Below, piece by piece: positions 4,463-48,261 of a DNA stretch of 64,000 nucleotides. The translations under genes and the position numbers were made by a program. The notes beneath the pieces are model-generated. The model was not told the DNA's origin. It made no database searches and was given only the letters and a program-made list of their open reading frames with translations. The stretch comes from Alphaproteobacteria bacterium (GTDB lineage: Bacteria > Pseudomonadota > Alphaproteobacteria > Bin95): the NCBI GenBank assembly GCA_963665325.3, contig CAXXWS020000003.1:96001-160000 (forward strand), in the 5' to 3' direction. The first letter of the stretch is position 1. Every line of letters begins with the position of its first letter.

Positions 4463-5650
4463 TCACACGGCTGCGCCGGCGGCCTTGAGCGCGTCGATCT
4501 CGGCCGCCGCGTAGCCCGCTTCGGCCAGCAGTTCGGCGGTGTGCTGGCCGAGGCGCGGCGGGTGATGCGCATAGACATGGCCGCTCTTCTCGAAGCGCAC
4601 CGGGAAATCCGGCTGGACGATGGGGCCTTCGCTGGGGTGCTCCATGTGGCGAAAGAAGCCCACCGCCTTCAGGTGCGGGTCCTCGACCAGGTCCTCCAGC
4701 GCGTTCATGCGCATATAGGGGATCTCCAGCCGCTCCAGCGCTTCCACCCATTCTTCCGTTGTCCGCGTGGAGAGGATTTCGCCGACGACGACGTAGAGAC
4801 TTTCGACATTCTCCGTGCGCGCGCCCATGTCGGCATAGAGCGGGTCGTCCGCGAGTTCCGGCCGGCCTGCCGCCTCGACGAAGCGCCGCCACTGGCCGTC
4901 ATTGTAGGCGAGCACGTTCAGGTGCCCGTCCGCGGTCGGATAGGGCTTGCGCCAGCGGGCGAGCACGCGCGGATAACCCATCGGGGCCAGCGGCGGGTCG
5001 AACACATGGCCGTAGAGATGTTCCATGGTGTTGAAATGGGCCATGGCCTCGAACATCGGCACCTCGACGAACTGGCCCTCGCCGGTGCGTTCCCGGTGCA
5101 GCAGCGCGGCCGTCACGGCCGAGGTCGCCATAAGCCCGCAGGTCTTGTCGGCGGCCACCATGGGCGTGAAGCGCGGCTCGCCCGCGAGCGGCTCCATCAG
5201 CGCCGCCAGCCCGGAGCCTCCCTGGATGATGTCGTCATAGGCAGGCCGCCCGGCATAGGGCCCGGCTTCGGAGAAGCCGTGCAACCCGACATAGACGATG
5301 CGCGGATTGCGGGCCCGCACCGCGTCGGGGCCGAAACCCAGCCGGGCTATGGCCTGCGGGCGGATCGAGTGGATGAAGACGTCTGCCGTGTCCACAAGCC
5401 GCCAGAGGGCCTCGCGCGCCTCTTCGTGCTTGAGATCGAGGCAGATGCTGCGCTTGTTGCGGTTGCAGAGCAGGAAGAACGCGGCCATGCCGGGATTATG
5501 GCCGGGCCCCGTCTTGCGCGTCGTGTCGCCGGCAGGCGCCTCGATCTTCACGACATCGGCGCCCATGTCGCCCAGCAGCATGGTGCAATAGGGGCCGAAC
5601 AGCACGGAAGTGAGGTCGAGGACCCTTATGCCTTCCATCGGCGCGGTCAC
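4463..5650 (-). CDS. CaiB/BaiF family III CoA-transferase
   Basis: GIRVLDLTSVLFGPYCTMLLGDMGADVVKIE, NRNKRSICLDLK, PAYDDIIQ; GTG start overlaps the stop of the upstream SDR (GTGA). Confidence 0.92.
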   Translation of the reverse strand: MTAPMEGIRVLDLTSVLFGPYCTMLLGDMGADVVKIEAPAGDTTRKTGPGHNPGMAAFFLLCNRNKRSICLDLKHEEAREALWRLVDTADVFIHSIRPQAIARLGFGPDAVRARNPRIVYVGLHGFSEAGPYAGRPAYDDIIQGGSGLAALMEPLAGEPRFTPMVAADKTCGLMATSAVTAALLHRERTGEGQFVEVPMFEAMAHFNTMEHLYGHVFDPPLAPMGYPRVLARWRKPYPTADGHLNVLAYNDGQWRRFVEAAGRPELADDPLYADMGARTENVESLYVVVGEILSTRTTEEWVEALERLEIPYMRMNALEDLVEDPHLKAVGFFRHMEHPSEGPIVQPDFPVRFEKSGHVYAHHPPRLGQHTAELLAEAGYAAAEIDALKAAGAAV

Positions 5651-6534
5651 AGCCCGTCCTCCCGCTTGGCATCCGAATAGTCGAGCTCGAATCGGGACGG
5701 CCGCCCGAACGCCCACGGGTCGCCCCAGAGCTGCTGGCCGCCGTCCACCGTCACCACCTCGCCGGTGACGAACTTGCCCGACGGCGCGGAGAGATAGGCG
5801 ATGGCCTCGGCTACATCCCACTCGTCGCCAGCGCGCAGCATCGGGTTGGACTGCGCGAAGGTCGCGGCTCCCGACGCCGGGTAGCGGCCGAAGGCGGTCG
5901 TCTCGCAGCAGCCGGGCGCGACGCAGTTGATGCGGATGCCGAGCGGCGCCCACTCGACGGCAACCGTCTTGGAGAGATAGACCACGCCAGCGCGCGCGGC
6001 CGCCGTGTGCGCCACTCCGGGTATGCCGCGCCAGATATCGGCCACCACATTCACGATGGAGCCGCCCTCCTCCCGCTCCCGCCAGAGCTGCGCGGCCGTC
6101 TGCATCATCCACCATGTGCCGTTCAGATTGGTGTCGATGACCGCCCGCCAGCCCTTGACCGAGAAGTCGATGGCGTCCTGCGCGAACTGCCCGCCGGCAT
6201 TGTTGACGAGGTGGTCCAGCCGCCCGTGCTCCTCGAACACGCGCCCGAGCAGCGCGCCCACCGCTTCCGGATCGCGGATGTTGCAGACGGCGGCGTCCAG
6301 GCCGAGGCCGTTCTGCCGGAACTGCGCCTCCAGCGCGTCCAACTTGGCCCTGTCGCGTCCGATGACGACCACCGTAGCGCCGAGCCGCGCGAACAGGATC
6401 GCCGTCGCCCTGCCGAGCCCGCTGCCGCCGCCGGTGACCAGCGCCGTTTCGCCCTGGAACAGGTCCGCGCGATAGACCGTCGGCCAGTCGAACATGCGCT
6501 CGTCATGGCCGTATTCCGCTTGGCCGCCGGTCAT
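5647..6534 (-). CDS. SDR oxidoreductase (trans-2-enoyl-CoA reductase/citronellol dehydrogenase-like)
   Basis: TGGGSGLG, LVNNAGGQF, HTAAARAG motifs. Confidence 0.85.
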   Translation of the reverse strand: MTGGQAEYGHDERMFDWPTVYRADLFQGETALVTGGGSGLGRATAILFARLGATVVVIGRDRAKLDALEAQFRQNGLGLDAAVCNIRDPEAVGALLGRVFEEHGRLDHLVNNAGGQFAQDAIDFSVKGWRAVIDTNLNGTWWMMQTAAQLWREREEGGSIVNVVADIWRGIPGVAHTAAARAGVVYLSKTVAVEWAPLGIRINCVAPGCCETTAFGRYPASGAATFAQSNPMLRAGDEWDVAEAIAYLSAPSGKFVTGEVVTVDGGQQLWGDPWAFGRPSRFELDYSDAKREDGL

Positions 6535-33578: not shown

Positions 33579-34586
33579 ATGAGCACGATGCACGGCATCC
33601 AGAGCGACGCGCATACCCGCGAGCCCGACAAGACGATATCCGTGCGCGAGGTCTTCGGATTCGACACGGACATGATTGCGCCCGCCTTTTCGGAGCCGAA
33701 CGACTACGTGCCCGAGGTCGATCCCACCTACCATTTCGACGAACAGACCACGCTCGTGATCCTGGCCGGCTTCGCCCACAACCGCCGGGTGATGATCCAG
33801 GGCTACCACGGCACCGGCAAATCGACCCATATCGAGCAGGTCGCTGCCCGGCTGAACTGGCCGTGCATCCGCATCAACCTCGACAGCCATGTGAGCCGCA
33901 TCGATCTGGTCGGCCGTGACGCCATCGTCGTGCGCGACGGCAAGCAGGTCACCGAATTCCGCGAGGGCATGCTCCCCTGGGCGCTTCAGCATGCGACCGC
34001 GATCGTCTTCGACGAATACGATGCCGGCCGCCCGGACGTGATGTTCGTCATCCAGCGCGTGCTGGAGGTCGAGGGCAAAATGACGCTGCTCGACCAGAAC
34101 CGGGTCATCCGCCCGCATCCGTCCTTCCGGCTGTTTTCGACCTCCAACACCGTCGGCCTCGGCGACACGACCGGCCTCTATCACGGCACCCAGCAGATCA
34201 ACCAGGGCCAGATGGACCGCTGGAACGTGGTGGCGACCTTGAACTACCTGCCCGAGGACGACGAGCTGAAGATCGTCCTCGCCAAGGTGCCGGAGCTCTC
34301 CGACGAAAAGGGGCTCAAACGCGGCAAGCAGATGATCCAGCTCGCCGAACTCACCCGCCGGGGCTTCATGAACGGGGACATCTCGACCGTCATGTCGCCG
34401 CGCACCGTCATCACCTGGGCTGAGAACACGCGCATCTTCAACGATCTCGGCTTTGCGTTCCGCGTCACATTCCTCAACAAGTGCGACGAGGCGGAGCGGC
34501 CGATCGTGGCGGAATACTTCCAGCGCTGCTTCGACAGCGAGCTGCCCGAGTCGGTGGTGGCCTCGGGGATCGGCCTCACCCCATGA
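33579..34586 (+). CDS. cobS: Cobaltochelatase subunit CobS (AAA+)
   Basis: [50 protein letters not shown]. Confidence 0.95.
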
Positions 34587-36448
34587 GTCTCACCGGCGAC
34601 AAGGAGACGCCGCTCGACGCTTTCAAGCGGGTGACCGGCGCCACGATGCGCGCCATGGGCGACATCGACGAGCTGGAAGTCTCCTTCGGTCCGGACAGGG
34701 CATCCTTGGAGCGCGGCCACGCCAAACTGCCGATGCCGGGCCGCGACCTTCCACCCGCCGAGGCCGCCTTCGTGCGCGGCGAGGCCGACTCGCTGGCGCT
34801 CCGCGAGCGCCATCACGACGCGGTGGTGCATGCCCGGCTCTCGCGGGGCGGGCCGCAGGCGCGTGCGGTGTTCGACGCGCTGGAGCAGGCGCGGGTGGAG
34901 GCCTGGGGCTCGCGTTACATGGCGGGCGCGGCGCGAAATCTCTCGGAGGCGGTCGATGAGCGTTGCCGCCGGCAGGGCTACGCCCGCGCCTCCTCCGCCG
35001 ACGATGTGCCGCTGGCGGAAGCTGTCGGGCTCTATGCCCGCGAAACCCTCTCCGGGCGGGCCGCTTCGCCCGTGGCGGCCGGGGTCCTCGACCTCTGGCG
35101 CGATTGGTTCGACCAGCGCGCGGCGGACGCCTTCGCCGATCTGGCGGGCCAGATTCACGACCAGGAGGCGTTTGCGACGCTGGCCGGGCGCCTGATGGAA
35201 GACCTGGAGCTGCTGGACGACTCCGCTTCGGGCGAAGAAGAAGGGTCCGAGGACGACGCCGACGATGCCTCCGAGGACGGCGAGGGCGACGGGGCGGAGG
35301 GCGAAAGCGACGGCACGCTGATGTCCGATGCTTCGGACATGTCGGACGCCGAAGGGGAAGATACCGGCGAGTCCGGCGATGACGACGCCGATGCGGAAAT
35401 CATGCCGGGCATGGGCGACGAGGAACCCGGGCGGTCCTCGCCGCAGGAACACCCGATGCACGGCCGCAACGACAATGCCGGTCCGGCCTACTTGCCGTGG
35501 ACGGGCGAATTCGACGAAATCATCCATGCGGACGAGCTTTGCGACGCGGACGAGCTCGCCCGGCTGCGCCATCATCTCGACCAGCAGCTCGCCAGCCTCC
35601 AGGGCGTCGTCAGCCGGCTGGCCAACCGCCTGCAGCGGCGACTGATGGCCCAGCAGGTGCGGGCCTGGCAGTTCGACCTGGAAGAGGGCCTGCTCGACGC
35701 TGCACGCCTGGCGCGCGTCGTCGCCGACCCGATCCATTCGCTGTCCTACAAGATGGAGAAGCAGACCGATTTCCGCGACACCGTGGTATCGCTGCTGATC
35801 GACAATTCCGGCTCGATGCGCGGCCGGCCGATTTCGGTGGCGGCCATGAGCGCCGACATCCTCGCGCGCACGCTGGAGCGGTGCGGCGTCAAGACCGAGG
35901 TTCTGGGCTTTACCACACGCGCCTGGAAGGGCGGGCAGTCGCGCGAGAAATGGCTGGCGGCCGGCAAGCCCGCCAATCCGGGCCGGCTGAACGACCTGCG
36001 CCATATCATCTACAAGGAAGCCGATTCGCCGCTGCGCCGGGCGCGCAAGAATCTCGGGCTGATGCTCCGCGAGGGCATCCTGAAGGAAAACATAGACGGC
36101 GAGGCGCTGCTCTGGGCGCACCACCGCCTGCTCGGCCGGCCCGAGGACAGGCGCATCCTGATGGTCATCTCCGACGGCGCTCCGGTGGACGACTCTACGC
36201 TGTCGGTCAATCCCGGCAACTATCTCGAACGCCATCTGCGCGAGGTCATCGAGTGGATCGAGACGCGCTCGCCGGTGGAACTGATCGCCATCGGCATCGG
36301 CCACGACGTGACGCGCTACTACCGCCATGCGGTGACGATCTTCGACGCCGACCAGCTCGGCGGCGCGATGATGGAGCAGCTCGCCGGCCTCTTCGACGAG
36401 GAAAGCCGCCGCCAGCAGGGGCGCAAGGCGGGCAGGCCATCGCGGTGA
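34583..36448 (+). CDS. cobT: Cobaltochelatase subunit CobT (vWA)
   Basis: Acidic linker; [36 protein letters not shown]. Confidence 0.95.
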
Positions 36449-38288: not shown

Positions 38289-38849
38289 ATGCGGGCGACC
38301 GGCAGCATGAAGCCAAGACCCCGAGCTATCATCCGGCGGCATATTCTCGCGCTTGCTGCGCTTGCAATCGCGATACTGTTCTTCGCCTACGACATTGTCG
38401 CGGACTGGTTGTACGAAGACGAATACGGGACCTTTCACTTTCTTGTCGAACTCGTCGTGTTTGTCGGCGTATCCATGGCGCTCATTTTCGGCCTCAGGGA
38501 CCTGCGCCGATTGCGCGTTCGGTTGAACCGCGAGGAGCACCGGAACAGGCTGTTCTCCACGGCGCTCGCGGAAAGCATCGACGAGCAGTTGGATGAATGG
38601 CGGATGACCCGGAGCGAAAAAGACGTCGCCTGGTTCATTATCAAGGGGTACCGCTTTGCCGAGATCGCCAGGATCCGCGGAGTCAAGGAAAGCACAGCGC
38701 GGTTGCAGGCCACTTCTCTCTATGCGAAGGCCGACGTAAACGGGCGGGCGGAATTCGTTGCCGAAATCATTCAGCCGCTGCTGATGTCCATTCCGAGCGA
38801 CTCCTCACCTCGCGACAGCGAAGCCGGCGGCAGGACGAATCCACCTTGA
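38289..38849 (+). CDS. Membrane-anchored LuxR-type HTH regulator
   Basis: Two hydrophobic helices, then WRMTRSEKDVAWFIIKG..FAEIARIRGVKESTARLQATSLYAKA...RAEFV; alternative start at 38307. Confidence 0.85.
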   Translation: MRATGSMKPRPRAIIRRHILALAALAIAILFFAYDIVADWLYEDEYGTFHFLVELVVFVGVSMALIFGLRDLRRLRVRLNREEHRNRLFSTALAESIDEQLDEWRMTRSEKDVAWFIIKGYRFAEIARIRGVKESTARLQATSLYAKADVNGRAEFVAEIIQPLLMSIPSDSSPRDSEAGGRTNPP

Positions 38850-40408
38850 AGCCGCGACAAGTTCCCGGTGGCGACACCTGGTTCTGCATTCGGCGAAACG
38901 GATCGGTCCGGCGCAAGGGTTGGATCGAGGGCGGCCCGCTGGCCGGGATACGCCGCATTGTCGGCGCGCGCTCCGATGAGGCAGTGGAATTGTGCATTGC
39001 CAGCGACTTCCGGCGCGTAGCGCACAAGCGTTTCGCACGCGCGTTCTATCCTCGCGCCTGCGGACTGGTCGGGATGGAGGTGGCTTTCCGCGGTGAGATT
39101 GTCCGCTTCGCGCCAACACACATGCTGGCTGCCAACCTTGGGTTCCGCCGCGCTCTGGAGAGATTCCTCGACGAGCGGGAGGCCAGCCGCGACGACTTCG
39201 CGAGAGAGGGCGCTCTCCGCGCCTTCCGCGCCGAGCAGTACCTGTTGCCCCCGGGAAACGGGCGCGGGCCTGTAGAGCTTTTTCGCGGCGGGACCCTGGT
39301 TGAAGCCGTATCGACCGGCGACACGGACTGCGCGGCGGACCTTGAAGACGGAATCGGGCAGTGGATGCTTCGCAACCTGTCCGCTGACGGAGCGCTGCCT
39401 TACAAATACTGGCCGAGCCGCGGCACGGAATCGCCTGCGGACAATGCTATTCGCCGCTTCCTGGCATCGTTGTCCCTCGCTCGTCTGGGCGAGTTCCGCC
39501 GCTCTGCGGAAATCCGCGAAGCCGCACGGCGAAACCTGCGCTTCAACCTGGCGCGGTATTTTCGGGCGATAGGCGGCGGTCGAGGAGCCATCGTGGAGCG
39601 CACCGGAGCGAAGCTCGGCGCCGCCGCGCTCGCCGGGCTGGCAATTATCGAAAATCCTGCGAGAGAAGAGTTTGCCGACGAACTGGCCATGCTGGCGGCA
39701 GGCATCGAGTCTCTTGCGGACGACGAGCATGGGTTCCGCACGTTCTTTTTCCCGGCCGAGCGCGATGGCGAGAATTGGAACTTCTATTCCGGGGAAGCAC
39801 TGCTGTTCTGGGCCGAGGCGGCGCGAAGAGGGCTTTCGATTGCGCCGAGCCTGGAGCGGTGCGCCTCAGCGTTCGAGCGGTGTCGCGAAAGGCACTATCG
39901 GAAACGGAATCCTGCTTTCGTGCCTTGGCACACCCAGGCTTGCGCGTCGTTGTTCGCCCAGACCGGGCGGCGCGAATTCGCGGAATTCGTGCTGGAGGCG
40001 AACGACTGGCTCCTGGCGATGCAGCAGTGGGACGGACTCGATCCCGACTTGCGCGGGAGGTTCTACAATCCGCGCCGTCCCGAATTCGGCCCGCCGCACG
40101 CGGCGTCCACCGGAGCGTATCTGGAAGGGCTGGCGGACGCAGCAGCGCTGGCCCGTGCGCTCGGCGAAACGCGGCGGGCTTCGAGCTACGAGCGGGCCAT
40201 TCGTCGTGGGCTGAGGTCCCTGCGGCAACTGCAATTTAGAGATTGGCGCGACATGTACTATGTCTCCAGGACACGCCGCGTTCTTGGCGCATTGCGGACA
40301 GAAGTTTACGACAACGCCGTGCGAGTAGACTCAGCGGCCCACGCCCTCCTGGCGGCGATCAAGATACTCAGACCAATGGAATTCGATAGCCGCCCTTCAG
40401 ACGTGTGA
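38846..40408 (+). CDS. Uncharacterised enzyme: AMMECR1-like N-terminal region plus alpha/alpha-toroid-like domain
   Basis: TTG start overlaps the LuxR stop (TTGA). Motifs GALPYKYWP, KLGAAALAGLA, NFYSGEAL, FVPWHTQA, GALRT...VRVDSAAHAL. Fold assignment is recalled resemblance, not a search result. Confidence 0.7.
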   Translation: MKPRQVPGGDTWFCIRRNGSVRRKGWIEGGPLAGIRRIVGARSDEAVELCIASDFRRVAHKRFARAFYPRACGLVGMEVAFRGEIVRFAPTHMLAANLGFRRALERFLDEREASRDDFAREGALRAFRAEQYLLPPGNGRGPVELFRGGTLVEAVSTGDTDCAADLEDGIGQWMLRNLSADGALPYKYWPSRGTESPADNAIRRFLASLSLARLGEFRRSAEIREAARRNLRFNLARYFRAIGGGRGAIVERTGAKLGAAALAGLAIIENPAREEFADELAMLAAGIESLADDEHGFRTFFFPAERDGENWNFYSGEALLFWAEAARRGLSIAPSLERCASAFERCRERHYRKRNPAFVPWHTQACASLFAQTGRREFAEFVLEANDWLLAMQQWDGLDPDLRGRFYNPRRPEFGPPHAASTGAYLEGLADAAALARALGETRRASSYERAIRRGLRSLRQLQFRDWRDMYYVSRTRRVLGALRTEVYDNAVRVDSAAHALLAAIKILRPMEFDSRPSDV

Positions 40409-41044
40409 CCGCGACGATGTTTCAGGGTGAGGGGGCAAGACGTGGAGCCCGCGGCCAGGGGCCGGGAGGACATCGAATATCAGATGTACACGGGGCTCGG
40501 AGGAAGGATTGTCGGCGAAGTGCCGAGCCTTGTTGTCGAATGCCCAGAGCTCTCCCTCATGCATCACGACAGTCTCGTCGCCGGCGGTAAGCGGACTTCC
40601 CTCTGCGCTCTTCAAGACCAGATGCAGCCGGTCCCGGACCCGGTAGTAAGCCCCGGCATCGACATGGGGGAAAACCCGGCATTGCGGCAACAGCGTCACC
40701 AGGGTCGCCCGCCCCAGCCCGGCTTCGAGCTCAGCGGCAACCCGCTCGCAGAACGCCAATGCGAGAGGAAGTTTCCCGGCTGCCGGTGTAAGCCGGCTCT
40801 CATGGACATCGTTGGCATTCCTTGCACCCGGCGGAAGCGGCTTTTTCGGCGCGCGGAGGAAGATGTTCCGGGTATGGCGTTGGCAACGAACCTTTCGCTG
40901 ACGACTCGTGTCCACCGACCACATTTCCGGCGCGGCATCCAATTCTCTCAACAACGGAACGATGTCCACGCATTCTGCGATCCGGGTGAAATGGGCCCGG
41001 CCGTCTGCAATTCCGGAGTTCGTCATCGTCTTTCTCCCCGACAT
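40397..41044 (-). CDS. Aspartyl/asparaginyl beta-hydroxylase-family 2OG-Fe(II) oxygenase
   Basis: HxD (FPHVDAG), RLHLVL, GELWAFDNKARH (distal His), PRVHLIFD (2OG-binding Arg); no signal peptide. Confidence 0.88.
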   Translation of the reverse strand: MSGRKTMTNSGIADGRAHFTRIAECVDIVPLLRELDAAPEMWSVDTSRQRKVRCQRHTRNIFLRAPKKPLPPGARNANDVHESRLTPAAGKLPLALAFCERVAAELEAGLGRATLVTLLPQCRVFPHVDAGAYYRVRDRLHLVLKSAEGSPLTAGDETVVMHEGELWAFDNKARHFADNPSSEPRVHLIFDVLPAPGRGLHVLPPHPETSSRSHV

Positions 41045-41050
41045 AAACCT

Positions 41051-41296
41051 TCAGGATCCGGCTGGAGTCGCGCCGCAGGCGCGGGCCTGTTCTCTCATTG
41101 AGGCGTAGTCTTTCAGCATCGCAACGATCGCCGAGTCCTCGGGCAGCCGTTCGATCTCGCTCGCGGCCCGCTCCCGGAAGTCTGCGGCATAAGCGACCAG
41201 GGACGGACAGGCACCTGTAGACCCGGTTTCAGAAGCTCCCGTCGCGCAGGCCGTCAACAAGACCGTCGCGGCCGCCAGACTGATTATTCGTCTCAT
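41051..41296 (-). CDS. Small lipoprotein (81 aa), o-spanin/Rz1-like
   Basis: [17 protein letters not shown] lipobox, CPSLVAY...[12 protein letters not shown]; its start lies inside the 3' end of the GD-repeat gene in another frame. Confidence 0.75.
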
Positions 41297-41981
41297 TGTT
41301 GCCGCCCTTGCTGCCGTCGCCATCTCCGTCACCATCGCCATCCCCGTCGCCATCGCCGTCGCCATCCCCATCCCCGTCACCGTCGCCATCGCCGTCTCCG
41401 TCTCCGTCGCCATCGCCGTCTCCGTCTCCGTCGCCATCGCCGTCTCCGTCTCCGTCGCCATCGCCGTCTCCGTCCCCGTCCCCATCGCCGTCTCCATCCC
41501 CGTCGCCGTCTCCATCCCCGTCGCCGTCTCCATCCCCGTCGCCATCGCCGTCCCCATCCCCGTCGCCGTCTCCGTCCCCATCCCCGTCGCCGTCCCCATC
41601 CCCGTCTCCGTCTCCGTCCCCGTCTCCGTCTCCGTCTCCGTCCCCGTCGCCGTCTCCGTCCCCATCCCCGTCGCCGTCCCCATCCCCGTCGCCGTCTCCG
41701 TCTCCATCGCCGTCGCCGTCTCCGTCCCCGTCGCCATCGCCATCGCCGTCTCCGTCCCCGTCGCCATCGCCATCGCCATCGCCGTCTCCGTCCCCGTCCC
41801 CGTCGCCATCGCCATCGCCGTTGGCGCGAGCTTCCTGGAAAATATGAGGTGGCGCTTTTCCACCCAGAATGTGGATTCCGTTGCTCATCGTCAGGACAAA
41901 CGTCACAAGGAGGCCGCTCAGAGCCAGAGCCAGTCGCCGCAGAAAAGTCGGTGTACGCCCGTGAACCTTCTTCGAATTCAT
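41229..41981 (-). CDS. Signal/TM-anchored poly(Gly-Asp) protein, 250 aa with (GD)84
   Basis: GGGAG RBS before ATG 41981; basic N-terminus, hydrophobic helix [18 protein letters not shown], then 84 GD pairs and a 28-aa tail. Codons vary only synonymously (GGN GAY). Confidence 0.85.
41316..41819 (-). repeat. Degenerate hexanucleotide repeat (GGNGAY)84
   Basis: 504 bp of RTCNCC units on the + strand. Confidence 0.97.
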
Positions 41982-43708: not shown

Positions 43709-43785
43709 GAGGCCGGCAGCGATACGGGCGGCAGCGCCGCCCGAGGCCATGACCGCGGCAGGAATTCCGGGCTAGAATGGCGGCA

Positions 43786-45042
43786 ATGCAGCGCTATTCG
43801 ATCTTTTCGCTCCTCCGGGGCGCGCTGTCGGGACACCGCGACTGGCAGCCGGCCTGGCGCGCACCGGAACCGAAACCCTCCTACGATGTCGTCATTGTCG
43901 GCGGCGGCGGCCATGGCCTCGCCACGGCCTATTATCTCGCCCGCAACCACGGCATTACGAATGTCGCCGTGCTGGAGCGCGGCTGGATCGGCGGCGGCAA
44001 TACCGGGCGCAACACCACCATCGTGCGCTCGAACTACCTGCTGCCGGAGAACCAGCGCTTCTACGAGCACTCGCTCAAGCTCTGGGAGGGGCTCAGCCGG
44101 GACCTCAACTACAATGTGATGTTCTCGCCGCGCGGCGTCATCAATGTCTTCCACACCGACGCCCAGCGCGACTACTGGATCCGGCGGCATAACGGCATGC
44201 GCTATGCCGGCATCGACGCGGAATTGCTGACCCGGGCCGATCTTGCGCGCCTCGTCCCGGCGCTCGACCTCTCGCCCGGAATCCGCCACCCCATCACCGG
44301 CGGCGTCATCCAGCCGCGCGGCGGCGTCGCGCGGCACGATGCCGTCGCCTGGGGCTATGCGCGCGCCGCCGATGCGCTCGGCGTCGATATCATCCAGGAC
44401 TGTGAGGTGACCGGCATCGACGTCCAGGCCGGCAGGGTCACGGGGCTGCAGACGAGCCGGGGGCCCATCGGCGCCGGGCGCATCGGCCTCGCCGTCGCCG
44501 GGCATTCCTCCAGGCTGGCGGAAATGGCGGGCGTTCGCCTTCCCATCGAGACGCACCTGCTCACGGCGACGGTTTCCGAGCCGGTCAAACCCTTCATGGA
44601 CAAGGTCGTCTCAGTGGCGGCGGCGCATGTCTATGTCAGCCAGACCGACAAGGGCGAAGTGCTGATCGGCGGCACTCTCGACGGCTACAATTCCTGGTCG
44701 CAGCGCGGCAGTCCCGCGCGGCTGGAAGACATATTGTCGGCGGCCTGCGAGTATTTCCCGCGCGTCTCGCGCCTGCGCCAGCTCCGGCACTGGGCGGGCG
44801 TCGTGGACATGAGCATGGACGGCAGCCCGATCGTCGCCAAGCTGCCGGTCGAGGGCCTCGCCATGACCGGCGGCTGGTGCTATGGCGGCTTCAAGGCGAC
44901 GCCCGCCTCGGGCTGGTGCCTCGCCTGGACGCTCGCCAACGATGCGCCGCACGCGCTGAACGCACCCTTCTCGCTCGAACGCTTCCGCACCGGAGCCGTG
45001 CTGGACGAGAACGGCGCCGGGCCGGTGGCGTGGGGCCATTGA
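43786..45042 (+). CDS. soxB: Sarcosine oxidase beta subunit
   Basis: YDVVIVGGGGHGLATAYYLA, GGNTGRNTTIVRSNY, ARHDAVAWGYAR, GGFKATP; alternative start at 43777. Confidence 0.94.
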   Translation: MQRYSIFSLLRGALSGHRDWQPAWRAPEPKPSYDVVIVGGGGHGLATAYYLARNHGITNVAVLERGWIGGGNTGRNTTIVRSNYLLPENQRFYEHSLKLWEGLSRDLNYNVMFSPRGVINVFHTDAQRDYWIRRHNGMRYAGIDAELLTRADLARLVPALDLSPGIRHPITGGVIQPRGGVARHDAVAWGYARAADALGVDIIQDCEVTGIDVQAGRVTGLQTSRGPIGAGRIGLAVAGHSSRLAEMAGVRLPIETHLLTATVSEPVKPFMDKVVSVAAAHVYVSQTDKGEVLIGGTLDGYNSWSQRGSPARLEDILSAACEYFPRVSRLRQLRHWAGVVDMSMDGSPIVAKLPVEGLAMTGGWCYGGFKATPASGWCLAWTLANDAPHALNAPFSLERFRTGAVLDENGAGPVAWGH

Positions 45043-45055
45043 GGGGGCTGGACGC

Positions 45056-45316
45056 ATGCTTCTGATTCCCTGCCCGTTCTGCGGCGACCGCGACGAAACT
45101 GAGTTCGCCTATGGCGGCGAAGCCGGAAACGAACGTCCGGCAGACCCCGGGGCCGCGACCGATGAAGCCTGGACCGACTATCTCTGCTTCCACGACAACC
45201 CGAAGGGCCCGCACCGCGAACTCTGGTTCCATCGCGACGGCTGCAGGCGCTGGCTGACGGTCGAGCGAGATACCTACACCCACGAACTCCGCACGGCGCG
45301 GTTGAGCCGGCCATGA
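45056..45316 (+). CDS. soxD: Sarcosine oxidase delta subunit
   Basis: IPCPFCG.RDETEF.YGG...H..GCRRW. Confidence 0.94.
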   Translation: MLLIPCPFCGDRDETEFAYGGEAGNERPADPGAATDEAWTDYLCFHDNPKGPHRELWFHRDGCRRWLTVERDTYTHELRTARLSRP

Positions 45317-48261
45317 GGCGCCAGCCCTTCCGCACGGTCGAGGGCGGCCACCTGATCGACCGCTCGCAGCCGCTGCGCTTCGATTTCGACGGTCACCGCC
45401 ATGAAGGCTACCGGGGCGACAGCCTGGCCTCCGGGCTGCTGGCGGCCGGCGTGCGCATCGCGGCGCGGAGCTTCAAGTACCACCGCCCGCGCAGCATCTG
45501 GGGCTTCGGCTCGGAAGAGCCCAACGCCATGGTCACGACCGGCGTTCGGGAGGAAGCCCGGCCTAACCTGAAGGCGACGGAGATTCCGCTCTCGGACGGC
45601 CTCAAGGCCTTCGGGCAGAACGCCTGGCCCTCGGTCCAGTGGGACATCGGCGGCGCGCTCGGGCTTGCCGGCGACATCCTGCCGGCGGGCTTCTACTACA
45701 AGACCTTCATGTGGCCGACGCGCTGGTGGCACGGCCTGTACGAACCGCTGCTGCGCCGCATGGCGGGCTTCGGGCCGGCGCCGGCGGCGCCCGACGACGC
45801 CTTCTACGCCAAGCGGCGCATCCATGCCGATGTGCTGGTGGCAGGCGGCGGGCCGGCGGGCGTGGCGGCGGCGCTTGCGGCGGCGCGCGCCGGGGCGCGG
45901 GTCGTGCTTGCCGACGAGAATGTCCGTTTCGGCGGCGACCTGTTGCGCACGCCGGGGGAGATCGGGGAGGGCGACGGACTCGCCTGGATCGACACTGCGG
46001 TCGGCGAGCTGGAGTCGATGAGCAATGTCCGCCTGCTGCCGCGCGCCACCGTGACCGGCTATTACGACCACAACCTGCTTCTGGTCGCGGAACGGGCCGG
46101 CGAGGAGGCGCCGCCCGGCACGCCGCAGACACGCCTCTGGTTCGTGCGGGCGCGGGACGTCGTGATCGCTGCCGGCGCGCATGAGCGGCCGCTGCTCTTC
46201 GCCGGAAACGACCGGCCGGGCGTCATGTCGGCATCCGCGGCAGGCGGCTATGCCCATGCATACGGTGTGCTGGCTGGGCGGCGCGCCGTGGTCGCGGGCA
46301 ACAATGACAGCATCTACCCGGTGGCCCGGCTGCTGCAGAGTGCGGGCGTCTCGATCGCCGCCGTCGCCGATACCCGGCCCGACGGCGAAGCGCCGGACCT
46401 GCCCTGCCGCGCGGGTCAGGCCGTCGAGCGGGCACTCGGGAGCCGCCGGGTGCGCGGCGCGCTGCTTCGCCGGACGGACGGCCGGGCAGGCGGCCGGAGC
46501 CAGCGGATCGCCTGCGATCTGGTCGCCGTTGCCGGCGGCTGGAGCCCGGCCGTGCATCTTCACGCCCAGTCGCGCGGCAGCCTGCGCTACGACGAGGAAC
46601 GGGGATTGATCCTGCCCGACCGGCCGGGCGGCGCGAACCGGAGCGCCGGCGCGGCCGCCGGGCGCTTCGACCTCGACGGCTGTCTCGCGGAAGGCTGGGC
46701 CGCCGGGACCGCCGCGGCTGCATCCTCGGGCCACGAGCGCGCCGCCGGCGACCCGCCGCGTTCGCCCGACCGCAACGCCGGGGACGCGCCCGTCTTCTGG
46801 CAGATGGGCGCCGGCAAGCGCTTCGTCGATCTGCAATACGACGTGACCGCGGCGGATGTGGAGCTTTCCGCCCGCGAGGGCTACCGCTCGGTCGAGCATG
46901 TGAAACGCTATACCGCGCTCGGCATGGGCACGGACCAGGGCAAGACTTCCAGCATGGCGGGCCTCGTACTGCTGTCCGAGGCGCTCGGGCGGCCCGTCGC
47001 CCGGACCGGCACGACGACCTTCCGCCCGCCCTACACGCCGGTGCCGATGGCGGCCATGGCCGCCGGCCTCATCGGCGAGGGCCATGACGCGCTGCGCCGC
47101 ACGGCGGTCGACGACTGGCACGAAGCCCGGGGTGCCGTCTTCACCGCCGCCGGCCACTGGCGCCGGCCCAGCTACTATCCGCGCGAAGGCATGAACGAGG
47201 ACGAAGCCATCGAGGCGGAGGTGCGCGAGACCCGCGCCGGGGTCGGCATCGTGGATGTCGGCACGCTCGGCAAGGTCGATGTCCAGGGACCGGATGCGGC
47301 GGCCTTTCTCGACCTCGTCTACGCGAACCGGATTTCGAGCCTCAGGACCGGGCGCGGACGTTACGGGCTGATGCTGCGCGAGGACGGACGCGTGTTCGAC
47401 GACGGTGTCGTCATGCGCCTCGGCGAAAACCATTTCTACCTGACGACCACGACCGCGCAGCACCACGCCGTGGTGCAGCATATGGAATTCCTGCTCCAGA
47501 CCGTCTGGCCGGAGCTGGAGGTCCATGCGACCGATGTATCGGAGCACTGGTTCACCGCCGCGCTTGCCGGTCCCGGCTCGCGGTTGCTGCTGGGCGATGT
47601 CGCGCCCGAACTCGACGTGTCGGACGAAGCTTTCCCGATGATGGCGGTGCACGCGGCCACGGTCGCCGACCTGCCGGCCCTCGTCTTCCGAATGAGCTAT
47701 TCCGGCGAGCTCTCCTACGAGATCGCCGTGCCCGCCGACTACGGGCTGGCGCTCTGGACGCGGCTGCTGACGGCAGGCCGCGAGCACGGGCTCACGCCTT
47801 ACGGCCTCGAGGCCATGGGCGTCATGCGCATAGAGAAGGGGCATGTGACCCATGCCGAGGCGGACGGCCGCACGACCCCGGACGATCTGGGGCTCGGGCG
47901 CATGGTCAGGGCGGATGCGCGCAGCATCGGCGTGCGCTCGCTGGAACTGCCGGCGCTCCGCCGGAAGGGCCGCCAGCAGCTTGTCGGCCTCTCCGTCATC
48001 GACCCCGAAACCCGTATCCCGCCGGGCTGCCAGGTGGCGGAAAGCGACGACCTGCAACCCGCCCCGCCGCTCGGCCATGTCACTGCCTTCTGCTACAGCC
48101 CGACGCTCGGCCGCTCGCTCGCGCTCGCGCTGATCGAGAACGGGCGGGCCCGGACCGGCCAGACGGTCCATGTCACCTCGCCGGTCATCGGCTTTTCCAC
48201 CGCGGCGGAGGTCGTGTCGCCGGTGTTCTACGACCCGGAAGGGAAACGCCTCCATGTTTGA
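45313..48261 (+). CDS. soxA: Sarcosine oxidase alpha subunit
   Basis: [36 protein letters not shown], GcvT-like C-terminal half. Confidence 0.95.

Follow-up and report, generated by a model that had tools for sequence, protein, structure and literature searches.

Gene content of the poly(Gly-Asp) island

The window analyzed here is a 64,000-nucleotide stretch of the genome of an Alphaproteobacteria bacterium (contig CAXXWS020000003.1, positions 96,001 to 160,000 of the forward strand). Its subject is an island of five genes encoding a protein with a long uninterrupted Gly-Asp (GD) array, a small lipoprotein, two putative enzymes and a regulator. The plus-strand unit begins with the gene for a membrane-anchored regulator (38289–38849; 186 amino acids, aa), followed by a gene of an unnamed enzyme family (38846–40408) which encodes a 520-aa protein from a TTG start; the letters TTGA contain both the regulator stop and the start of the 520-aa gene. 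The minus-strand unit is composed of the GD protein gene (41229–41981 from its likely ATG, 250 aa, in a frame open to 42074), the lipoprotein gene (41051–41296, 81 aa) and a PF05118 oxygenase gene (40397–41044, 215 aa). The lipoprotein gene overlaps the 3' end of the GD protein gene by 68 bp in a different frame, and a gap of 6 bp separates the lipoprotein stop from the oxygenase start. The two units converge, with a 12-bp overlap between the 3' ends of the oxygenase gene and the 520-aa gene. An earlier reading of the window from sequence alone (the sequence-only reading) had described the same five genes, coordinates, overlaps and TTGA coupling, and all of these are reproduced here.

The island is flanked by an AidB-like acyl-CoA dehydrogenase gene and an enoyl-CoA hydratase gene. 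It also exhibits a reduction in the G+C content of third codon positions (GC3), from 0.85–0.90 in the six flanking genes measured (cobS, cobT and the AidB-like, enoyl-CoA hydratase and sarcosine oxidase genes) to 0.65–0.74 in the five island genes, in agreement with the excess of A/T-ending codons remarked on previously. This lower GC3 indicates that the five-gene block was imported. Four congeners also carry the block, and in none of them is either of the window's flanking genes found beside it (within flanks of 1.5 kb, or 16 kb for genome G008); the block evidently occupies different sites in different genomes.

The GD protein and its repeat array

The GD protein starts with a short, basic N-terminal stretch and one hydrophobic helix, followed by a juxtamembrane segment that is conserved, the array (GD)84 and a 28-aa C-terminal tail. 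Its start is likely the ATG at 41981, which agrees with the N-termini of relatives, and the N-terminal segment is conserved in tblastn comparisons. The membrane topology is predicted from the translation, which places a signal-anchor or transmembrane helix at approximately 41883–41936. The array occupies 41316–41819 (168 codons) and the tail, which ends in LRDGSF, occupies 41232–41315, all on the minus strand.

The array is perfect at the protein level and contains exactly 84 pairs, the number counted in the sequence-only reading. Its codons are mixed in order (GAC 56, GAT 28, GGC 35, GGG 24, GGA 23, GGT 2), so that the DNA units match one another by only 82–83% in Tandem Repeats Finder, and every nucleotide difference among the units is synonymous in the GD frame. 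In the whole 5.58-Mb genome, a degenerate DNA pattern for (GD)10 finds this array and nothing else, against 0 matches for the reversed control; the array is far beyond chance. Related arrays, collected as described below, behave similarly: 76 of 76 use both Asp codons, 64 of the 76 use at least three Gly codons, and the longest run of identical 6-nt units has a median of 3. The array DNA looks scrambled, unlike a simple microsatellite, and because the scrambling is synonymous, selection must act on the peptide. Matches of the GD protein to the Pfam TrAA12 and MSCRAMM models were set aside as low-complexity artefacts.

Conservation of the module across phyla

To place the island among other genomes, 85 loci with the 520-aa protein were fetched, five from congeners and 80 from species-representative genomes, and scored by tblastn and a six-frame scan in which a GD array was defined as an uninterrupted run of at least six pairs. 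The oxygenase is encoded in 77 of the 85 loci, and in 74 of these 77 it is convergent to the 520-aa gene. A GD array is present in 76 of 85, at a distance of 0.4–3.3 kb from the 520-aa gene, and the longest run per locus ranges from 7 to 136 pairs with a median of 46. Oxygenase and array occur together in 72 loci. Misses of either are mostly on short contigs, and when the count is limited to loci with 3 kb or more downstream (65), the oxygenase is found in 61 and the array in 62. The regulator is found in 28 of the 85 loci, mostly titled Proteobacteria, and the lipoprotein in 14.

The search was also run from the oxygenase, for which 202 relatives were obtained. Among the best 80, the 520-aa gene is present in 78 loci and a GD array in 76; where 3 kb is available on both sides (64 loci), the counts are 63 and 62, respectively. 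The two locus sets overlap heavily and include a few duplicates, as L005 and L008 come from one contig region and L064 and L065 are nearly identical. GD arrays thus recur beside close homologues of both enzymes. The sequence-only reading would have been refuted had Asp-rich repeat genes never lain beside close hydroxylase homologues, and this test does not refute it. A third count comes from the (GD)10 pattern, which was applied to G000 and 60 related genomes and is found in five of the six genomes with the 520-aa gene, compared to one, G037, of the 55 without it, the reversed control being 0 throughout. By these counts the gene module is established, as is its link with GD arrays. The pattern matches of the congener G008 lie on both strands (58 forward, 14 reverse), and this genome may contain a second GD array away from the enzyme locus.

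The titles of the carrier genomes name Alpha- and Gammaproteobacteria, Acidobacteriota (Vicinamibacterales, Thermoanaerobaculia and Bryobacterales), Gemmatimonadota, Binatia and Chloroflexi, at least five phyla in all. Module proteins are 55–84% identical across these groups, which points to horizontal spread of the module. The island is also covered at about 96% identity by contigs from two sponge metagenome runs belonging to two studies; the short-read contigs all break at the GD array. No RNA run containing the locus was among those listed.

The proteins which carry the array differ widely among the relatives, and the GD module alone is common to them. The window protein belongs to a type with a signal anchor, a conserved juxtamembrane segment and a conserved C-terminal tail. 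Other carriers are lipoproteins which end in GD followed by poly-Asp tails of 7–35 residues (Vicinamibacterales and Gemmatimonadota), lipoproteins with a C-terminal folded domain, proteins with RTX-like repeats after the array (L014, L036, L040 and L086), and large proteins with the array at the extreme C-terminus; large N-terminal domains also occur among the carriers.

Clustering of all open reading frames (ORFs) from 86 loci returned solely the 520-aa, oxygenase and regulator families as recurrent, the remainder being shadow ORFs, and no conserved protease, exporter, transporter or HD-domain family was found nearby. This result bears on the possibility that the GD polymer is a multi-core precursor which is modified, cut into small hydroxy-Asp peptides and secreted as siderophore-like chelators of the kind known as RiPPs (peptides made by the ribosome and modified post-translationally). 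Beta-hydroxy-Asp is a known Fe(III) ligand in siderophores, and the placement of an enzyme pair beside a repetitive peptide gene would suit such a pathway. The oxygenase SmaO and its partner SmaX, which are compared with the island below, do lie in RiPP clusters (PMC12186529). Excision and secretion are at odds with the lack of a conserved protease or exporter among the clustered loci and with the nature of the carriers: each is either an anchored protein or a lipoprotein, frequently bearing folded domains or a conserved C-terminal docking tail, and such carriers argue that the polymer stays attached. We therefore regard a multi-core precursor as quite improbable.

The oxygenase

The 215-aa oxygenase has no visible signal peptide and matches PF05118 with an E-value of 5.1e-15 (56.1 bits against a cut-off of 22.6, profile positions 47–154 of 157). 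Across 35 aligned homologues, H127, D129 and R185 never vary and H175 is kept in at least 90%; one row of this alignment (A2, L044:11237-12007) is a spurious ORF and was ignored. We take the HxD...H arrangement to be the iron-binding motif and the basic residue to bind 2-oxoglutarate. The conserved residues look fit for an active Fe(II)/2-oxoglutarate center, and hydroxylation of Asp by this protein is the probable activity.

The enzymes and the polymer are physically joined in some relatives. A Pfam scan of 21 long relatives of the 520-aa protein identified a fused PF05118 oxygenase in seven. In nine Thermoanaerobaculia loci, a lipoprotein signal, GD and poly-Asp segments and an oxygenase domain follow one another in a single stop-free frame. 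The link between enzymes and substrate is supported by both the fusions of the 520-aa domain with the oxygenase and the frames shared by GD array and oxygenase. The Thermoanaerobaculia frames are those of L044, L058, L060, L062, L064–L067 and L069, and lie at about 9.5–11.7 kb of each locus.

The 520-aa protein

The 520-aa protein has no match in Pfam, NCBIfam or PHROG. Scoring of 8000 candidates identified 1225 related proteins at E ≤ 1e-3, and the best 120 of them are 66–99% identical to the window protein, with four named rows, all "hypothetical protein". When representatives clustered at 50% identity are considered, the number of matching clusters is 1322 at E ≤ 1e-3 and 309 at E ≤ 1e-30. 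AlphaFold2, supplied with a 58-sequence alignment, provided a model with a predicted local distance difference test score (pLDDT) of 94.9 and a predicted template modeling score (pTM) of 0.93. The model is composed of an N-terminal alpha/beta domain (residues 1–150) and a six-hairpin (alpha/alpha)6 barrel (residues 154–512), and a fold search places the barrel among the six-hairpin (alpha/alpha)6 enzymes. The toroid fold proposed in the sequence-only reading is borne out by the confident model together with this search.

The near-invariant residues of the family include R147, R203, K256, H362, H418, R444, R484, R493 and H499, and these Arg, Lys and His side chains would be compatible with an anionic substrate, though no more than compatible. 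D387 and E427 are near-invariant as well. A profile of the 58 family members gave 0 matches to PDB sequences, and no convincing Pfam match was obtained in any of the 58. In the Atlas, reached through the homologue P0121, the neighboring clusters have a C5-epim_C label in 11–49% and an AMMECR1 label in 12–13% of their members; Pfam does not confirm these labels, which serve as leads only.

The fold and the oxygenase family both raise the possibility that the GD array is simply a flexible acidic spacer, and that the enzymes act on an unrelated lipid or small molecule, the genes being together because they share a mobile island. PF05118 includes the lipid A hydroxylase LpxO (the NCBIfam match of the window protein is very weak, E 0.23), carbohydrates or terpenoids are the usual substrates of six-hairpin enzymes, and the island is clearly imported. 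Yet the carriers differ completely outside the GD module while the array stays beside the enzymes across phyla, and array and oxygenase are fused in frame in the nine loci described above. Passive hitch-hiking would also not keep perfect GD arrays under synonymous scrambling. A mere spacer is thus highly unlikely in our estimation.

Homology of the GD protein and lipoprotein to phage spanins

The lipoprotein has the lipobox LLTAC, two conserved Cys residues in its mature part and a match to LPAM_1 at E 0.0022. It also matches phrog_26778 at E 6.4e-18, and homologues are encoded in five Rhodobacter or Roseobacter phage genomes. The lipoprotein profile aligns with the lipoprotein ORF of Rhodobacter phage RcRudolph over 65 columns (hhalign, probability 98.5%, E 2.9e-15). 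Both RcRudolph and CRP-235 have the homologue as a small lipoprotein ORF. This ORF shares DNA, in a different frame, with the 3' end of the gene for a helix protein, about 80–96 aa long with the helix at its N-terminus, and the helix-protein gene follows a cell-wall hydrolase or lysozyme gene by one or two genes; the neighboring hydrolases of the phage genomes are a lysozyme or a CHAP hydrolase. The same order is found in IMG/VR, where 13 of 13 viral contigs encode an M15 peptidase, then a helix protein of about 91 aa, then an overlapping lipoprotein. The viral protein of about 91 aa has an N-terminal helix followed by a charged helical segment at the place where the window protein has (GD)84. 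These phage homologues are annotated merely as hypothetical proteins, and we take the layout of a helix protein with an overlapping lipoprotein to be that of two-component spanins. The M15 peptidase of the viral cassettes (L102–L114, at about 1450–2680 of each) also has a hydrophobic C-terminal segment.

The tail of the GD protein is related to the viral helix proteins as well. A profile of 13 GD-protein tails aligns with 11 viral membrane proteins over 29 columns which end at both C-termini (hhalign, probability 96.4%, E 1.4e-9). Both the tails and the viral i-spanin-like proteins end in LRDG plus two residues, and L35, R36 and F40 are invariant in the 13 tails. The comparison is significant in its profile-profile form alone, as a single-sequence tail against one phage protein gave a probability of 2.9%, which is not significant.

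From these alignments and the shared layout, the GD protein and its overlapping lipoprotein are assigned as homologues of a spanin pair, in which the coiled coil has been replaced by (GD)84 and which lies outside any lysis cassette. The lipoprotein, which the sequence-only reading listed among the five genes, is more than a generic accessory: the two profile alignments and the viral gene order make it the o-spanin-like partner of the GD protein. The proposed spanin-derived tether is well supported at the sequence level.

Since both components are homologous to phage proteins of lysis cassettes, they could in principle be a remnant or an active lysis unit with no functional relation to the neighboring enzymes. 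This is extremely improbable: the island contains no endolysin, holin or other phage gene and has metabolic flanks, and GD replaces the coiled coil, which is thought to drive spanin action. The spanin-type carrier is moreover one of several types of GD carrier found with the same enzymes, and all 14 loci which have the lipoprotein keep it together with them.

Regulator and flanking genes

The regulator has two N-terminal hydrophobic helices with conserved charged residues, followed by a divergent helix-turn-helix of the LuxR/GerE type at about residues 105–164. F32, D35, D39, H50, F51, E54 and F58 are invariant in 23 homologues, and a cation-sensing role may be a matter of speculation from the buried charged residues. 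A profile of the 23 homologues matches the DNA-binding domains of VraR, GerE and NarL over residues 105–164 with E-values of 1.1e-4 to 2e-3, and the window protein matches the NCBIfam LIC13292 family at E 2.4e-13, below the cut-off. The Pfam GerE model (PF00196) scores 14.5 bits on the window protein (E 0.028) against a cut-off of 23.5, and is weak in 22 of the 23 homologues, with a best E-value of 1.4e-4. The membrane LuxR label of the sequence-only reading is therefore weakly supported: the profile similarity to GerE-type domains speaks for it, but the Pfam scores fall short.

A promoter scan identified 0 sites and a terminator scan five sites against 3.8 expected, which is uninformative. 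Outside the island, the CobT-like protein (34481–36448) contains a long acidic insert rich in Asp, Glu and Ser at roughly residues 235–300, which is unrelated to the GD island. Following the enoyl-CoA hydratase gene, positions 43777–48261 encode sarcosine oxidase-like proteins (beta, delta and alpha by appearance), an ordinary metabolic flank with high GC3.

Proposed function of the module

We lean toward an interpretation in which the island serves to modify a poly(Gly-Asp) segment that is made ribosomally as part of an envelope protein, as a dedicated system whose parts are the oxygenase, the 520-aa enzyme and a spanin-type carrier. The oxygenase would hydroxylate the beta-carbon of the Asp residues that precede Gly, before or during export, and the 520-aa enzyme would then act on the same polymer. 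Its step could be a second tailoring of the hydroxy-Asp side chain, such as epimerization, elimination or aldol-type chemistry next to the carboxylate; alternatively, the protein might hold the polyanion for the oxygenase. The carrier would be an exapted phage spanin pair, with the GD protein held in the inner membrane by its N-terminal helix, (GD)84 crossing the periplasm in place of the coiled coil, and the conserved tail contacting the lipoprotein from the overlapping gene. What results would be a polyanionic tether, modified and able to bind cations, that links the two membranes. Regulation of the module probably falls to the membrane LuxR-type protein, whose gene is translationally coupled to that of the 520-aa enzyme.

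Several observations weigh against this interpretation. The six-hairpin fold is common to hydrolases, lyases, epimerases and cyclases, and the reaction is not identified by it. In the loci L024 and L053, which encode both enzymes, no array lies within 8 kb, and in L033 and genome G002 the 520-aa gene stands alone. Genome G037, from another family of the same class, has an array of at least ten pairs (seven overlapping pattern matches) and a profile search, too, finds no 520-aa homologue there. Hydroxylation would not be universal: in the first set, the four loci of lowest identity (40–48%) have GD arrays and no oxygenase detectable by tblastn. In the broader family, a scan with the fused relative P0131 sampled 79 further loci, 34–66% identical to the window enzyme: GD arrays of at least six pairs are present in 43 of the 79, while tblastn finds an oxygenase in 18 and none in 61. 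Lastly, in the Thermoanaerobaculia fusions the lipoprotein signal precedes both the GD array and the oxygenase. If working, this signal would put the oxygenase, along with its presumed substrate, outside the cytoplasm, which is a misfit with simple modification before export.

The loci lacking a detected oxygenase suggest another explanation, namely that the 520-aa enzyme is the true GD-directed enzyme, that the Asp side-chain carboxylate is the main site of a cyanophycin-like ligation or activation, and that the oxygenase is a lineage-specific accessory which may have another substrate. Besides the GD arrays kept next to the 520-aa gene in these loci, and the scarcity of the oxygenase in the broader family, its support comes from ligases. 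In L083 (5066–7750) and L087 (2619–5264), a distant 520-aa relative and a GD array adjoin a Mur-ligase and PGA_cap fusion, and in L085 (9740–13865) a double ATP-grasp protein and an LPG_synthase_C-like protein lie beside the 520-aa relative and array. Among the 21 long relatives, eight have the 520-aa domain fused to domains of this kind (Mur-ligase M and C domains in five, ATP-grasp in two and PGA_cap in one); a methyltransferase with an FAD-binding domain is fused in one more, and five have no further domain in the Pfam scan. The ligase neighbors of L083, L085 and L087 are hints of ligase-decorated GD polymers. Nevertheless, the oxygenase is near-universal in the subfamily of the window (77 of 85 loci; reverse search, 78 of 80), fusions join it with the 520-aa domain or the GD protein in other genomes, and the island of the window contains no ligase gene. 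SmaO (PMC12186529) also shows that hydroxylation of Asp in DG motifs exists. Side-chain ligation as the main reaction is accordingly an unlikely explanation for this island, although less so than the spacer or the multi-core precursor.

Some loci depart from the common arrangement in other respects. The subtilase of L082 is encoded in the GD-bearing frame. In L231 and L239, two Kofleriaceae loci of the broader family, Asp-rich runs broken by Phe or Gly are found in place of GD arrays. Stella vacuolata ATCC 43931 (L265), a cultured strain among the broader-family loci, has (GD)80 and a LysR regulator beside its 520-aa homologue, and a 286-aa ORF without a Pfam match (5122–5982) directly precedes the homologue; this ORF might encode a divergent partner enzyme.

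Returning to a dedicated modification system, GD arrays are most often partnered by the 520-aa family among the loci found, and the oxygenase is the usual second enzyme in the subfamily of the window. The sequence-only reading, which took the GD polymer for the substrate of the hydroxylase, needs revision on this point; distant relatives of the 520-aa enzyme adjoin GD arrays with amino-acid ligases and no detectable hydroxylase. The 520-aa enzyme likely acts in some way on the polymer. On a wider scale, we tentatively suggest, with less confidence than for the island itself, a horizontally spreading, cross-phylum system in which genetically encoded poly(Gly-Asp) would be made into a new kind of polyanionic, metal-chelating envelope material, by beta-hydroxylation through the oxygenase and a further reaction of the six-hairpin family at the carbon adjoining the side-chain carboxylate. 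In other lineages ligases would decorate it instead, and here it would be built into a spanin-derived tether spanning the periplasm.

The module is real and is undescribed in the literature searched. If the proposed function is true, it would represent a new class of ribosomally made, enzymatically tailored polyamino-acid and a genetic route to a material resembling poly(beta-hydroxy-Asp-Gly). It would also provide the first function and natural substrate for a large uncharacterized enzyme family, the 1322 clusters described above, and an example of a phage spanin turned into a component of the cell envelope. Genomes that carry the module are strongly enriched for those whose titles and read sets point to sponge and other host-associated communities. 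Together with its movement between phyla at 60–80% protein identity, this enrichment suggests a trait that is selectable in that habitat; examples would be the handling of cations, protection of the envelope or interaction with a host. Related modules are carried by the cultured Stella vacuolata ATCC 43931, Algihabitans albus ac2, several Pseudogemmobacter species and Paracoccus sp. IB05, and the question is therefore directly testable.

Comparison with known systems

The carrier pair resembles the two-component spanins (Rz/Rz1) in having a membrane protein with an N-terminal helix and a lipoprotein gene which overlaps the 3' end of its gene. It differs in having (GD)84 for the periplasmic coiled coil and in its surroundings, which are two enzymes and a regulator with no nearby endolysin or holin. 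The 520-aa model shares its six-hairpin (alpha/alpha)6 fold with the AGE epimerases/isomerases and with GH76 and GH88, but has an extra N-terminal domain, a peptide rather than carbohydrate context and, in the PDB profile and Pfam searches, no sequence match that would place it in one of these families. RTX repeats are nonapeptides of the form GGxGxDxUx, whereas the repeat of the window is a strict dipeptide; RTX-like repeats occur only as separate segments in some relatives.

Staphylococcal Ser-Asp repeat proteins (Sdr/Clf) have dedicated glycosyltransferases, SdgA and SdgB. In common with the GD protein, they have a dipeptide repeat with Asp at every second position, which forms a stalk in an envelope-anchored protein, and dedicated modifying enzymes. 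The GD array matches the Ser-Asp repeat regions of the SdrC, SdrD, ClfA and ClfB models with E-values of 1e-21 to 4e-18, scores which are far below the cut-offs and reflect low complexity. The repeat here is Gly-Asp, its enzymes are an oxygenase and a six-hairpin protein, and there is no LPXTG anchor or adhesin domain. Cyanophycin (CphA) and poly-gamma-glutamate (CapB/PgsB, CapA/PgsA) are likewise polyanionic amino-acid polymers, and the Mur-ligase, ATP-grasp and PGA_cap domains found fused or adjacent to 520-aa relatives are typical of their pathways. Those polymers are non-ribosomal, in contrast to the ribosomal backbone encoded here, and the island has no ligase. The Ser-Asp repeat proteins, cyanophycin and poly-gamma-glutamate are analogies only.

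The sequence-only reading knew of no described system with this layout, and the literature searched contains nothing on the system apart from the precedent of SmaO and SmaX (Kim et al., J Am Chem Soc 2025; PMC12186529). SmaO is an Fe(II)/2-oxoglutarate oxygenase that hydroxylates both Asp residues of GDGDG in the RiPP precursor SmaA to L-erythro-hydroxy-Asp, and it requires Gly after Asp. SmaX, an HD-domain iron enzyme (DUF6817/HD_4), makes aminomalonate from the hydroxylated product only. The two are fused in some genomes, and many putative precursors have Asp in Gly-rich regions. As described there, the Sma substrate is a short peptide with a GG leader and PCAT export, while the loci collected here encode 7–136 uninterrupted GD pairs in anchored envelope proteins with no conserved transporter or protease. 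The second enzyme also differs, being composed of an N-terminal domain without a Pfam match and a six-hairpin barrel instead of an HD domain. SmaO/SmaX (PMC12186529) is the closest published precedent: both systems combine an oxygenase with a second enzyme, fused to it in some genomes, and every Asp of (GD)84 precedes a Gly, as SmaO requires.

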